Source: Escherichia coli (GTDB lineage Bacteria; Pseudomonadota; Gammaproteobacteria; Enterobacterales; Enterobacteriaceae). Taken from it: a stretch of DNA of 64,000 bases. The notes under the pieces are model-generated. The model was not told where the DNA came from, ran no database searches, and worked only from the letters and a program-made list of their open reading frames with translations. The stretch is from assembly GCF_003334785.1 (NCBI RefSeq), contig NZ_QOWV01000001.1; one strand, written 5' to 3'. Shown in pieces: positions 37,336-51,288 of the stretch (the first letter of the stretch is position 1; each line of letters opens with the position of its first letter). The position numbers and the translations under genes are program-made.

Positions 37336-38862
37336 TTAAGACAAACGTGGGTAAATACCCGGACCTATCGGCAGACCGACAAGATACCACGCCAGCAACA
37401 TCAGCAGCCATACCACCAAAAAGATAAGTGGATAGGGCAAGACTAACGAATAGTAAGTACCCAGTTTCGCGTCTGGTTTGTAGCGTTGCAGGAATCCAAG
37501 AAACAGTGGAACAAAAGGAGATACCGGCGCTAAAGGCAATACGGATGAGTCGGCAATACGAAAGAGGATTTGCGCAAATGCCGGGTGAAAGCCAAGTAGC
37601 ATAAACATTGGTACGAAAATGGGGGCAAGAATCGACCAGATTGCGGAACCGCTGGCAATAAACATGCATAAGAAAGAGGAAAGCAACGCCAGACCGACAA
37701 ACGCCGGGATGCCGCTAAGCCCTGAACTTTCCAGTATATCGGTCAGCCCCACGGCGATGAATTTCCCCATGTTGCTCCAGTTAAACATGGCGACAAATTG
37801 GGCGAGGGGAAAAACCATCACGATAAATCCCGCCATCTCTTTCATCGGTTCAATCATTAAATGCGGTAAATCCGCCTGACGTCGAATTGTGCGGGTAGCG
37901 ATGCCATAAGCCAGCGAGACAACAAAGAAAAAAAGAATGATCAGTGGCACGATACCTTTAATAAAGGGTGATGGCATCACGGTGTGATTAATCGGATCGC
38001 GCAATATCCCGTTTTGCGGGATCACCATCAGCGCAATCGCAGCAATAAAAAGTAGCGATACGACACCTGCTATGCGTAAACCAAAACGCTGACTTTCGGT
38101 CAATGTCTGCAGTTTCTCATCGCTGTTTCCCTGCCATTGACCTAACCGTGGCTCGATGATTTTGTCGGTTATCAGGCCGCCAACAATCGTCAGTACGACT
38201 ACGGAGCTGGCCATAAAATACCAGTTATCAATTACACTGACGTGCATTTGCGGATTGAACGCAGCTGCCGCTTCCGTGCTGATCCCCGACAGCAACACGT
38301 CGGTTGTGACAATCAGTAAATTAGCCGTAAAGCCGCAACCTACGCCTGCAATGGCAGCCAGTAAACCTGCAACTGGATGCCTGCCCACCGCCAGAAAAAT
38401 CAGCGCACCCATCGGTGGCATGATCACTAACGCCGCATCGGAAGAAATGTGGCTGAAAAAAGCAATAAACAGCACCATATAACTGGCGTAGCGGGCATTA
38501 ACATGCGATGCCATTTTAACCATTAGTGCTGGCAGTAAGCCGACGCGCTCCGCCAGACCGGCACCTAAAACCAGCGCCAGGATCGCACCAAGTGGAGCAA
38601 AACCGCTAAAGTTTTTAATAACATTGGGTAAAAACCAGTGTAATCCTTCCACACTGAGCAGGTTTTTCACCACGACCGGCGTACCATCGGTCGGGTTTTT
38701 CGCACTGACGCCAAAGGCCGACAAAATTGCCGTCGTCACCATGAGTACGATAATCAAATAGATAAAGAGCAGAAAAGGATGGGGAACCTTGTTACCAATT
38801 CTTTCGACCCAGCCATAGAGCTTCCCGGATTGGGAGGACGACGGTATGGATGACATACTCAT
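37336..38862 (-). CDS. abgT: p-aminobenzoyl-glutamate transporter (AbgT family)
   Basis: ORF track 37336..38868; polytopic membrane protein. Confidence 0.85.
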
Positions 38863-38898: not shown

Positions 38899-40344
38899 TT
38901 ATTTTAAAGGTGACGGTGTCACGTTTTTCGGGATAGGGCAGTGATACGGTTGCGTGTCCGTTACTTGCTGATGCTCTTGTTGGCATTCTTGCAATAGCCC
39001 TGAATCAAGGAAGAGATTGACTGTGGTTGCTGCCATAGTTTTCGCCGCCAGCAGCATTCCTTTATGAGCAATAGATGTTCGCCCCTGGCTAACCAGTTGC
39101 CACGTATGTAGCGGTGTACCGACGGCAAAACAGGGGCTGAAACACTGGGCAACAGGCAGTTTCCAACTGACGTCGCCGACATCAGTCGATGCCGCAAGCA
39201 CGTTATCGGTGGCGGCATATGGAGCGACTTCATTCGCCAGTACCGTTTCACGATGACGTAGTGCAAAAACCTTGCCGTTTTCGCCACCGGTTGCGGCGAT
39301 ATTATTCAGACTGTTTTGCCGATCGTTGGAGGTGAGCGTAGCCTGAATTTGTTTCGCAAAAGCCAGTTCTTCGGAGTTCCATTCCGGGGTACCAAAATGG
39401 GATAGGGCCTGGTACATGGCATTTTCTAAGGTGCGATTCGGGAGATAACTGGAACAGGCTTTGTCGAAGCGGCATTCAACCGTGGTTTCGGTCATCAATG
39501 CCGCACCTTCGGCGATTTTGGCGACCCGATCATAAATATGCTGCACGTCGGTCATTTCGGGGGCGCGGATAAGATAAAGCACTTCTGCCTGCGCCTGGAC
39601 CACGTTGGGCGAGATCCCGCCGCTATTTGTGATGGCATAGTGTACGCGCGCTTTTTCAATAATATGTTCGTTGAGGAAGTTGGTGCCAGTGGTCATCAAC
39701 GTTACGGCATCAAGGGCGCTGCGTCCCAAATGAGGGGAATTCGCGGCATGTGCTGCGATCCCTTTAAAGCGCCATGATGCCTGAATGTTTGCCAGCGTGC
39801 GGGTATTGAACATACCGGCAAAGGCTTCCGGGTGCCAGGTGAGTGCCGCATCCACATCATCAAATACCCCCTCGCGAACCATGAACGTTTTACCCGAGCC
39901 GCCTTCTTCGCCAGGACAACCCTAAAAGCGCACCGTGCCGCCTTGCCCATATTGTTCCAGCCATTTCTTGACGGCTATTGCAGCGGCAAAGGCGGCGGTT
40001 CCCAGCAAATTGTGTCCGCAACCGTGACCATTTTCACCGGGCGTCACGGATGTAGGTTGCGCGCAACCTGCTTGCTGACTTAAACCTGCCAGGGCGTCAT
40101 ATTCTCCCAGCAGGGCGATAACCGGTTTGCCTTGACCAAACGAAGCAATAAAGGCATTTGGGATATTGCCTACGTTGCGGGTAACGGTGAAGCCTGCAGA
40201 TTCCAGCGCCGAAGCCAGATGCTCCGCTGACCAGAACTCTTCAAAACGTGTTTCTGGATGATCCCAGATTTGATCGGCAATATCGGTATAACGTTGGCGA
40301 TCGGCTTCAATCGCATCGTCGATAAAACGATAGATTTCCTGCAT
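38899..40344 (-). pseudogene. abgB: M20-family aminobenzoyl-glutamate hydrolase subunit B interrupted by an in-frame TAG
   Basis: ORFs 39922..40344 and 38899..39882 are in the same frame; translation across the gap reads ...GTVRF-*-GCPGEEGGSGKTFMVREGVFDD..., i.e. a single amber codon (plus-strand cta at 39922-39924). Confidence 0.75.
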
Positions 40345-41654
40345 CAGATACCTCGCGTCCAGGGAAAATTGAGCGCGGTGCGCGCCAGCGTTTCGACGGC
40401 AATAGCGAGAACCTGCTCGTCAAAATCGAATTTTTCGTTGTGATGACCTGCCGCCAGCTGTGTGCCAAACACCACGTAGGAGGCTTGCCCTTGATGTTGC
40501 TGCACGCGGGCCATCATTAATGTGGCATCTTCGGAACCCGCAGGCGCTTCAACACGTTCAATGGCCTGATTGACCCCCGCGACCTGAGCCGCCTGACTTT
40601 GCAACCATGCGACCCATTGCGGCGAAGGAGAACTGGCGGTAGCTGCACCCATCAGACGAGTTTCAACGCCGACACCATACATGGTTGCTGCGCCCTGAAT
40701 CGCTTGTTGTGCACGGTCAAAAACATATTGATTAATGACGTCGCTGGCCCCGCGTGTTTCCACTTTCAGCAACGCCGAGGCAGGAACAACGTTACGACCG
40801 CTTCCTGCCTGCATAACGCCCACGTTTACTCTGGAAGCTCCTTCGCTGTGCGGGGCGATTGCATGCAGTGCAAGAGTGGCTTGTGCTGCCGCCAACAAGG
40901 CATTGTGACCGTCTTCTGGTTTTGCGCCTGCGTGAGCGGCGGTACCGGTGAAGTGCGCGTCAAATTTGGTGGTTGCCATAAAATTATCACTGCCGCACAC
41001 CACGGTGCCCGCAGGTACGCCAGTGCCAATGTGCACGGCAGTAAAATAATCAACATCATCTACGACACCTGCATCGACCATCGCCCGCGCGCCACGCGTA
41101 CCTTCCTCTGCAGGCTGAAAAATCAGTTTGATGACGCCATGTAGTCCGGACTCGAACTGTTTAAGGGTATGCGCCAGCCCAAGCCCAATGGCGGTATGTC
41201 CATCATGACCACAGGCATGCATCATTCCGGCGTTACATGACGCAAAACCGTCGCGGTAGGGGCGATGGCTGACATCCTGCTCTTCACTGAGATCCAGCGC
41301 GTCCATATCGACACGGAAAGCCATCACCGGACCGGGGCGACCGGTATCCAGGGTGGCGACGATACCAGTGAAACCACCTTCAAAAGCCGCAATCCATTGT
41401 GCTAGCGCACCCTGTTGACGAGCGCGCTCGAATTCGCGTTGTAGAGTGAATTCATCAGGTAATCCCATCCGGCTACTTTCATTAACTACTTCGCGACCCA
41501 GCGCCAGTGAATAGCCGAGCTGGTGCAATTCTTCCGCAACAAGGGTGGCGGTGCGGAATTCCACCCAGCCAGACTCTGCATAGTGATGAAAATCACGTCG
41601 CCAGTGCGATAATTTTGGGGCAAGCGAATTAACAAATTGATTCAAAGACTCCAT
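40344..41654 (-). CDS. abgA: M20-family aminobenzoyl-glutamate hydrolase subunit A
   Basis: ORF track 40344..41669; start taken at MESLNQFVN. Confidence 0.85.
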   Translation of the reverse strand: MESLNQFVNSLAPKLSHWRRDFHHYAESGWVEFRTATLVAEELHQLGYSLALGREVVNESSRMGLPDEFTLQREFERARQQGALAQWIAAFEGGFTGIVATLDTGRPGPVMAFRVDMDALDLSEEQDVSHRPYRDGFASCNAGMMHACGHDGHTAIGLGLAHTLKQFESGLHGVIKLIFQPAEEGTRGARAMVDAGVVDDVDYFTAVHIGTGVPAGTVVCGSDNFMATTKFDAHFTGTAAHAGAKPEDGHNALLAAAQATLALHAIAPHSEGASRVNVGVMQAGSGRNVVPASALLKVETRGASDVINQYVFDRAQQAIQGAATMYGVGVETRLMGAATASSPSPQWVAWLQSQAAQVAGVNQAIERVEAPAGSEDATLMMARVQQHQGQASYVVFGTQLAAGHHNEKFDFDEQVLAIAVETLARTALNFPWTRGI

Positions 41655-41829: not shown

Positions 41830-42738
41830 ATGGCTTTTCAGGTAAAAATTCATCAAATTCGGGCTTTTGTTGAAGTGGCTCGTCAGGGCAGCATTCGCGG
41901 AGCGAGCCGAATGTTGAATATGTCGCAACCGGCACTGAGTAAATCTATTCAGGAGCTAGAAGAAGGGTTAGCGGCGCAACTCTTTTTTCGCCGTAGTAAA
42001 GGCGTGACGTTAACTGATGCCGGTGAAAGTTTTTATCAGCACGCCAGTCTAATTCTTGAAGAGCTGCGCGCAGCCCAAGAGGATATTCGCCAACGACAAG
42101 GGCAACTGGCAGGGCAGATTAATATCGGCATGGGGGCCAGTATTTCCCGCAGTCTGATGCCAGCTGTCATATCTCGTTTTCATCAGCAGCATCCGCAGGT
42201 AAAAGTACGCATTATGGAAGGGCAACTGGTGTCGATGATTAATGAATTGCGTCAGGGAGAATTGGATTTCACCATCAATACCTATTATCAGGGACCGTAC
42301 GACCACGAATTTACTTTTGAGAAATTACTGGAAAAGCAATTCGCGATCTTTTGCCGCCCGGGACACCCCGCCATTGGTGCCCGTTCGATCAAACAGTTAC
42401 TGGATTACAGCTGGACAATGCCGACGCCACACGGCAGCTACTACAAACAGTTGAGTGAATTGCTTGACGATCAGGCGCAAACGCCACAGGTCGGTGTAGT
42501 CTGCGAGACGTTCTCAGCCTGTATCAGTCTGGTGGCAAAAAGCGATTTTCTCAGCATACTGCCTGAAGAAATGGGCTGCGATCCCTTGCACGGACAGGGG
42601 CTGGTGATGTTGCCGGTTAGCGAAATTTTACCGAAAGCGGCCTATTATTTGATTCAGCGGCGTGATAGTCGCCAGACACCACTGACCGCGTCATTAATCA
42701 CGCAATTCCGGCGAGAATGCGGCTATCTGCAAAGTTAA
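41830..42738 (+). CDS. abgR: LysR-family regulator of abg operon
   Basis: 302 aa ORF, HTH plus LysR substrate domain; divergent from abgA. Confidence 0.85.
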   Translation: MAFQVKIHQIRAFVEVARQGSIRGASRMLNMSQPALSKSIQELEEGLAAQLFFRRSKGVTLTDAGESFYQHASLILEELRAAQEDIRQRQGQLAGQINIGMGASISRSLMPAVISRFHQQHPQVKVRIMEGQLVSMINELRQGELDFTINTYYQGPYDHEFTFEKLLEKQFAIFCRPGHPAIGARSIKQLLDYSWTMPTPHGSYYKQLSELLDDQAQTPQVGVVCETFSACISLVAKSDFLSILPEEMGCDPLHGQGLVMLPVSEILPKAAYYLIQRRDSRQTPLTASLITQFRRECGYLQS

Positions 42739-42745
42739 AACTGCA

Positions 42746-42840
42746 TAAAAAAATAGAGTCTGTCGACATCCGCCAGACTCTACAGTACACACAGCAGTGC
42801 ATCCGCGTCTTAAATCCGGCATTGTCTCCTCTGCGCCGGT
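42746..42840 (-). ncRNA. mcaS: small RNA McaS (IsrA)
   Basis: Minus-strand sequence ACCGGCGCAGAGGAGACAATGCCGGATTTAAGACGCGGATGCACTGCTGTGTGTACTGTAGAGTCTGGCGGATGTCGACAGACTCTATTTTTTTAT recognised from memory; ends in hairpin plus U-run; sits between abgR and smrA. Confidence 0.8.
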
Positions 42841-46217: not shown

Positions 46218-46339
46218 GCAGGTGAATGCAACGTCAAGCGATGGGCGTTGCGCTCCATATTGTCTTACTTCCTTTTTTGAATTACTGCATAGCACAATTG
46301 ATTCGTACGACGCCGACTTTGATGAGTCGGCTTTTTTTT
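46218..46339 (+). ncRNA. fnrS: FNR-activated small RNA FnrS
   Basis: GCAGGTGAATGCAACGTCAAGCGATGGGCGTTGCGCTCCATATTGTC...GACGCCGACTTTGATGAGTCGGCTTTTTTTT recognised from memory; terminal hairpin plus U8. Confidence 0.8.
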
Positions 46340-48101: not shown

Positions 48102-49037
48102 TTATTTCACTTCAACCACATTCAGCCGTAACTCATCCAACTGATTTTCATCTTCTTCTGGCTGCCAGCACGCCGGTTGTAGTGGGATCTCTTCGCGATC
48201 AAACGCCAGATCACCCCCGTTAACCACTTCAGAACCGTGGGTGATGCCTTTGAAATCGAACAGGTTGGTATCGCACAGATGCGACGGCACCACATTCTGC
48301 ATCGCGCTGAACATCGTCTCGATACGCCCTGGATAACGTTTATCCCAGTCACGCAACATGTCAGCAATCACCTGACGTTGCAGGTTAGGCTGTGAACCGC
48401 ACAGGTTGCACGGAATAATCGGGAACGCTTTTGCATCGGCAAATCGCTGAATATCTTTCTCGCGGCAGTAGGCCAGCGGACGAATAACGATATGTTTGCC
48501 ATCATCGCTCATCAGTTTCGGAGGCATACCTTTCATCTTACCGCCGTAGAACATATTTAAGAACAACGTTTGCAGGATATCGTCACGATGGTGACCCAAC
48601 GCGATCTTCGTCGCCCCCAGTTCCGTTGCGGTACGATAAAGGATACCGCGACGAAGGCGAGAACACAGTGAGCAAGTGGTTTTGCCCTCTGGAATCTTCT
48701 CTTTCACGATACCGTAAGTATTCTCTTCAACAATCTTGTACTCAACGCCCAGCTTTTCAAGATACTCGGGCAGAACGTGTTCCGGGAAGCCCGGTTGCTT
48801 TTGATCGAGGTTAACAGCCACCAGCGAAAAATTGATTGGCGCGCTTTGCTGCAAATTGCGCAGAATCTCCAGCATGGTATAGCTGTCTTTACCCCCGGAG
48901 AGGCAAACCATGATGCGATCGCCTTCTTCAATCATATTGAAGTCAGCAATGGCTTCGCCCACGTTACGACGCAGACGTTTTTGTAATTTGTTCAGGTTGT
49001 ATTGTTCTTTCTTACTAATTTCTTGATTTTGCGACAT
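48102..49037 (-). CDS. ttcA: tRNA 2-thiocytidine(32) synthetase (PP-loop ATPase)
   Basis: 311 aa ORF with PP-loop SGGKDS and Fe-S CxxC motifs. Confidence 0.9.
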
Positions 49038-49213
49038 TTAAAAGCGACTCAATTCGTTATATGGCATCAGAAGAGTATGCGTCATGCCGGAACGCCCAGC
49101 ATAAGAAATCTGATATAAAAAACTGTGGCGTGTATGGTACGGATTAGAGGGGAAAATGTCAGCACATTTGCGAAATGAATCAAAAAGCCCGCAGCAATGT
49201 GCGGGCGTTAGTG

Positions 49214-49729
<516 letters not shown>

Positions 49730-50922: not shown

Positions 50923-51149
50923 TGAATAAATCCTTTAGTTATTTTATTTGCCTTTTATCCCCATTTCGGGGAGTGAAAACATCCTAAAGGAGAAGTTCAG
51001 TTAGCCGATAAATATCATTTGTTACGCCTTAAGTAAAACCTTAATCAAATAATTCCTCTGAAATGATAATAAGTCTGGTGAATGTATCGAAGATAATACA
51101 TACAAAATAAAAATTATACTTTTAATTTGCTATACGTTATTCTGCGCGG

Positions 51150-51258
51150 GTTATATGCCTTTATTGTCACAGATTTTATTTTCTGTTGGGCCATTGCATT
51201 GCCACTGATTTTCCAACATATAAAAAGACAAGCCCGAACAGTCGTCCGGGCTTTTTTT
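51150..51258 (+). ncRNA. micC: small RNA MicC (ompC-targeting)
   Basis: GTTATATGCCTTTATTGTCACAGATTTTATTTTCTGTTGGGCC...AGCCCGAACAGTCGTCCGGGCTTTTTTT recognised from memory; terminal hairpin plus U-run; between ompN and pfo. Confidence 0.8.
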
Positions 51259-51288
51259 TTAGAATTGGATAATCCTTATCCAGAGCAT

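Follow-up and report, generated by a model that had tools for sequence, protein, structure and literature searches.

A probable recent nonsense mutation in abgB of a natural Escherichia coli lineage

The abgB gene of this strain is very probably a pseudogene: a nonsense mutation, recent and specific to its lineage, has turned Tyr141 (TAT) into TAG in a natural E. coli lineage without the prophage that K-12 has beside ttcA. The window, by which we mean the whole stretch of 64,000 nucleotides that was analysed, extends from puuD to tynA; it is unremarkable E. coli chromosomal DNA and differs by a few SNPs from several commensal, animal, and clinical isolates. The product of abgB is one of the two subunits of p-aminobenzoyl-glutamate hydrolase (PGH), an AbgA/AbgB heterotetramer (AbgA2AbgB2) that needs Mn2+ and in which AbgB is 481 amino acids long (PMC5082436). 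Both the gene and its operon are known, and the nonsense allele is previously undescribed but unremarkable. Because of the in-frame TAG at codon 141, the locus should be annotated as an abgB pseudogene and not as a functional member of the family; the strain then has one abgB pseudogene rather than two hypothetical genes. The finding, an ordinary knockout of a folate-salvage gene in a dispensable operon, matters little beyond annotation.

On the minus strand, codon 141 of abgB (window 39924..39922) is an in-frame TAG, and the reading around it is GGC ACG GTG CGC TTT TAG GGT TGT CCT GGC GAA GAA GGC. Translation of the minus strand from 40344 to 38899 gives 482 codons in a single frame, with one internal stop and the normal terminal stop. 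The peptide on the upstream side of the internal stop is KKWLEQYGQGGTVRF, which includes GQGGTVRF before the stop, and that on the downstream side is GCPGEEGGSGKTFMVREGVFDDVD. A preliminary description of this DNA had claimed that one in-frame amber codon divides abgB and had quoted a peptide running across both abgB ORFs in one frame. Our reading of the minus strand and its translation bear out the first claim, and the quoted peptide is identical to the translation that we obtained.

The list of ORFs contains a 140-aa ORF for the 5' fragment of abgB that, with its stop, occupies 39922..40344; the start codon of abgB overlaps the stop codon of abgA (ATGA). Further downstream, a 327-aa ORF opens at Met155 and is reported by gene callers as a separate gene (Table 1). 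This ORF might possibly give rise to a weak re-initiation product. Codons 142 to 154 of abgB (GCPGEEGGSGKTF) are in neither ORF. The uninterrupted frame of approximately 481 codons that characterizes a functional abgB is thus broken by the TAG at codon 141. Such a pattern would not arise by chance. The stop lies within a gene that is one unbroken ORF in the complete genomes checked.

Table 1. Positions of the abg genes, the abgB lesion, and other features in the window
Feature	Position	Strand	Remarks
abgA, 436 aa, intact	40344..41654	-	differs from K-12 by one synonymous SNP (41550)
abgB 5' fragment, codons 1-140	39925..40344	-	carries the GHGCGHN motif; ORF and translation
Premature amber TAG, abgB codon 141	39922..39924	-	ancestral TAT (Tyr); coding strand T>G, + strand A>C (39922)
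abgB remainder, codons 142-481 and normal stop	38899..39921	-	no longer translated from the native start
327-aa ORF from Met155	38899..39882	-	from the ORF list; reported by gene callers as a separate gene
abgT, transporter, 508 aa, intact	37336..38862	-	differs from K-12 by one synonymous SNP (37627)
abgR, LysR-type regulator, intact	41830..42738	+	divergent; one SNP relative to K-12, at 42557
sRNA McaS (IsrA)	42745-42840	-	at or above the Rfam gathering score; just past the abgR stop
sRNA FnrS	46218-46335	+	at or above the Rfam gathering score
sRNA MicC	51147-51267	+	at or above the Rfam gathering score
ycjS, D-glucoside 3-dehydrogenase	15095..16149	+	1-bp deletion, frameshift
ycjY, alpha/beta hydrolase	29196..30153	-	25-bp tandem duplication, frame broken

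Of 5426 complete E. coli genomes in RefSeq, 4199 have an annotated abgB that matches the 1446-base stretch, with a best identity of 99.9% (one mismatch) over all 1446 bases. The stretch has the same neighbors as the annotated gene in K-12 and in thousands of genomes; by sequence and synteny, it is an orthologue of abgB in the conserved place between abgA and abgT. In K-12, abgB (b1337; AbgB, WP_001156451.1) is found at the same locus with the same synteny (smrA-abgR / abgA-abgB-abgT-ogt-fnr). We compared 9446 bases around abgB with K-12 strain CETR1G40 base by base and found four SNPs, which are at window positions 42557 (abgR), 41550 (abgA), 39922 (abgB), and 37627 (abgT). Within abgB, 1445 of the 1446 bases are identical; the sole difference is at 39922, where the coding strand has G and K-12 has T. 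Since the gene is otherwise identical to that of K-12 and carries no second lesion, the event is recent, and no further decay has followed.

Codon 141 is still TAT in K-12 and in JKHS016 and AST198, which have the closest haplotypes. Of the 5426 complete genomes, 4160 match a 33-mer centred on TAT, and none matches the corresponding 33-mer centred on TAG. It had been suggested that a single substitution in a Tyr codon would produce the TAG and that an alignment with orthologues would identify the ancestral codon. The comparison with K-12, JKHS016, and AST198, together with the 33-mer counts, gives a Tyr codon, TAT (Tyr141), as suggested. K-12 makes an AbgB of 481 amino acids, whereas the window has TAG in place of TAT at codon 141 and encodes a fragment of 140 amino acids, to which a 327-aa restart product may or may not be added.

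We looked up the exact sequences of the 140-aa and 327-aa products in public assemblies. Matching contigs came from short-read assemblies of the runs SRR10357255 (90.7 kb; 90,671 bases), ERR1948969, and SRR1840539, and in these the 140-aa gene is followed by the 327-aa gene between abgA and abgT. The DNA of these contigs (L004/L016, L021, and L023, of which L016 is from SRR10357255) carries the same TAG. Carriers of the TAG were counted only where the gene was complete with its stop. The 140-aa product is listed in 96 index blocks, and nine of the ten places listed (L005-L013) are contigs that end inside codon 141, such as L005, which ends in ...TTTTA. We therefore rejected the reading of these blocks as 96 strains with the TAG; the contig ends at codon 141 are an artefact of looking up an exact product.

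The comparison with JKHS016, AST198, and the TAG-bearing contigs was made with diagnostic k-mer searches and short alignments. The three flanking SNPs of the window are common to the TAG-bearing contigs and to the closest complete genomes, JKHS016 and AST198, and the latter two keep TAT. The mutation therefore arose on this haplotype. No exact copy of the TAG allele was found among JGI metagenome contigs, which argues that the lineage is not common. From these sequence matches, we conclude that the TAG allele belongs to a small clone or lineage of which several sequences have been made. It could be that the three runs repeat the sequencing of one strain and do not represent independent isolates. 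Our literature searches found no paper that names the run accessions SRR10357255, ERR1948969, or SRR1840539 and none on abgB as a pseudogene.

The recurrence of the allele bears on whether the stop is real. An error of sequencing or assembly, with T as the true base, TAT as the codon, and abgB intact, would account for a single-base difference that is absent from all 5426 complete genomes, and the window does contain a 1-bp homopolymer deletion, in ycjS, which is a typical type of error. Nevertheless, the change in abgB is a substitution and no homopolymer indel, and the identical TAG occurs in assemblies of three separate runs, from two archives, on one haplotype. The product of the ycjS frameshift itself recurs widely in public assemblies (143 index blocks); hence there is no obvious sign that the window is prone to error. 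We consider error very improbable and rejected it because the same TAG on the same haplotype came from separate runs. The sense codon that the preliminary description allowed resequencing might give was seen in none of the three.

To describe the consequence for the protein, we compared full-length AbgB with family models. Full-length AbgB matches NCBIfam TIGR01891 (amidohydrolase, M20D type) with 445 bits over model positions 1-366 and contains the Pfam domains Peptidase_M20 (PF01546) and M20_dimer (PF07687). The 140-aa fragment covers TIGR01891 positions 1-119 and the 327-aa ORF covers positions 135-366. The segment between these two matches is that of codons 142 to 154; it holds the GCPGEEGG motif, which is consequently in neither fragment. 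A full-length match that includes the metal-binding/catalytic EE segment is given by neither of the fragments from the window. The stop is five codons before the conserved G-x-P-x-EE motif (E145/E146), and the dimerisation domain (Pfam match, residues 191-280) is wholly downstream of it. The 140-aa fragment keeps GHGCGHN; the EE motif, His171, and the C-terminal half of the catalytic domain are missing from it, as is the dimerisation domain. In a published alignment with carboxypeptidase G2 (CPG2), AbgB E146 is aligned with the metal ligand E176 and AbgB H171 with E200 (PMC5082436).

Structural homologues agree with this picture. HmrA from S. aureus (3RAM), PM20D2 (Xaa-Arg dipeptidase, 7YH4), and YxeP from B. 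subtilis (1YSJ) share the H-x-C-G-H-N and G-x-P-x-E-E motifs with AbgB and have the layout of a catalytic and a dimerisation domain that is common to AbgB. In HmrA and PM20D2, the sequences GCPAEEGG and GTPAEEDG, respectively, come directly after the residue aligned to Tyr141, which is Leu in both. All three homologues are unbroken single chains, whereas AbgB of the window is broken five codons before the EE motif. The idea that the two halves are normally separate genes was rejected on the basis of these single-chain PDB homologues, which are continuous across the break, and of the full-length TIGR01891 coverage. The earlier view that the result is a truncated M20-family subunit is upheld by Pfam, TIGR01891, and the structural homologues alike.

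Translation from the abgB start would end after 140 residues, with GHGCGHN kept and the EE motif lost, and re-initiation at Met155 would yield a 327-aa piece that is also without the EE motif. The N-terminal fragment would probably be unable to fold into the catalytic domain or to pair with AbgA. Since the EE motif is in neither the 140-aa fragment nor the Met155 ORF, we infer that no functional AbgB would be made and that the Mn2+-dependent AbgA2AbgB2 hydrolase would be lost unless the stop is suppressed. We predict that the strain cannot use p-aminobenzoyl-glutamate as a source from which to salvage p-aminobenzoate.

The genes on either side of abgB are intact, as had been noted before, and each differs from K-12 by one SNP. 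These SNPs in abgA and abgT are also found in JKHS016, whose AbgA and AbgT carry the K-12 protein accessions, showing that the changes are synonymous; the AbgA and AbgT proteins of the window are identical to those of K-12. The SNP in abgR changes the protein (WP_000885454.1 in JKHS016 versus WP_000885458.1 in K-12). The abgR allele of the window is present in 18 of the 23 loci compared, and K-12 itself may have the minority allele. Intact abgT may nonetheless be expressed at a lower level through polarity, with approximately 1 kb of untranslated abgB mRNA upstream of it. The only Rfam matches in the window are FnrS, MicC, and McaS, and none is at the stop site. Promoter-like and terminator-like sites in the operon were at the level of shuffled sequence, and an RNA element, promoter, or terminator at the stop site was accordingly rejected.

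If the amber codon were read through, by a suppressor tRNA or by basal near-cognate readthrough, some full-length AbgB would be made. A suppressor of the supF type would restore Tyr and one of the supE type would insert Gln. Either residue could be tolerated, since position 141 is not invariant, as the Leu in HmrA and PM20D2 illustrates. We found no tRNA genes in the 64-kb window, so that a suppressor tRNA encoded there was rejected. Amber suppressors are known as laboratory alleles that one would not expect to meet in wild isolates, which counts against readthrough, as does the low basal readthrough of UAG in E. coli, well under a few per cent. There is also no recoding signal, RNA family, or tRNA at or near the stop site. 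Programmed recoding, for which a conserved stop and associated machinery or signals would be expected, is ruled out by the lack of such a signal and by the conservation of the TAG in no complete genome (0 of 5426, compared with 4160 that have the TAT 33-mer). Production of full-length AbgB by readthrough is therefore extremely unlikely in our estimation.

No match to abgB was found in 1224 of the 5426 complete E. coli genomes. Genome HH45 has only the last 28% of abgB (89.9% identity), in a place where the annotated gene is an AbgT family transporter. Among the public assemblies, L015 (9893-10023) and L022 (1982-2112) have a Ser150 amber codon in abgB (TCG>TAG) with codon 141 still TAT/TAC. 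One base pair is deleted in each of two others: in L014 (9893-10023) from GGTTGT (codons 142-143) and in L020 (3377-3507) from the TTTT run (codons 140-141). The Ser150 amber was found in two places, each from two samples. These four alleles resemble that of the window in having a small lesion in the same gene within about 10 codons and the same 327-aa ORF downstream. The mutations themselves differ from the TAG of the window and all four loci are without its abgA SNP, indicating that they are independent of the event in the window. Clustering of lesions near codons 141-155 is expected, since looking up the 327-aa product returns only disruptions just upstream of Met155. Three other candidate lesions look like assembly artefacts: an N-gap (L017), a chimeric insert (L018), and a cluster of errors at low coverage in a 3.9x assembly (L019).

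The allele in the window adds one more example to the evidence for a dispensable abg operon that undergoes repeated decay in E. coli. The recurrent lesions could also be explained if loss of AbgB were adaptive, for instance by keeping import through AbgT and dropping the cost or toxicity of the hydrolase. Independent abgB lesions in other assemblies (the Ser150 amber and two different 1-bp deletions), the many genomes that are without abgB entirely, and the intact abgT and abgA in the window are all compatible with this. Against it, the lesions came from a look-up that was limited to the region just upstream of Met155 in a very large collection, and they do not show an excess over the neutral expectation. 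The abgB of the window has no second lesion and its neighbors are unaltered, as would be expected after a neutral hit of very recent date. Adaptive loss thus seems to us scarcely probable, and the nonsense allele would have been fixed neutrally or nearly so in a dispensable operon. It is similarly very unlikely that this locus reflects either of two less ordinary situations, a natural amber-suppressor tRNA present in a wild E. coli or a recurrent, selected loss of abgB that uncouples uptake by AbgT from hydrolysis in gut E. coli.

Two other genes in the window are broken. In ycjS, a run of five A residues is reduced to four by a 1-bp deletion at about 15399-15402 (GCGAAAAACC > GCGAAAACC), relative to SHP24 and other best matches. 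The resulting frameshift splits the gene into ORFs of 106 and 251 amino acids. In ycjY, a 25-bp tandem duplication at 29440-29489 (GTTACGCTACTTTGCGCAGCCTTAA x2) breaks the frame. The TAG-bearing contig L016 from SRR10357255 has the same duplication, as does JKHS016, whose ycjY is marked as frameshifted in RefSeq. L014 lacks the duplication, and its ycjY is an intact gene of 306 amino acids. Together, the abgB SNP, the ycjS frameshift, and the ycjY duplication provide a marker for the sub-lineage. The assemblies with the exact 106-aa product of ycjS include contigs of 90,684 bases, near the size of the 90,671-base contig that bears the TAG. At window 48102..49720, uspF and ompN come directly after ttcA, and no prophage adjoins it. 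K-12 carries a prophage at this position, which shows that the window does not come from K-12. In L014 and L019, a phage-type integrase gene adjoins ttcA.
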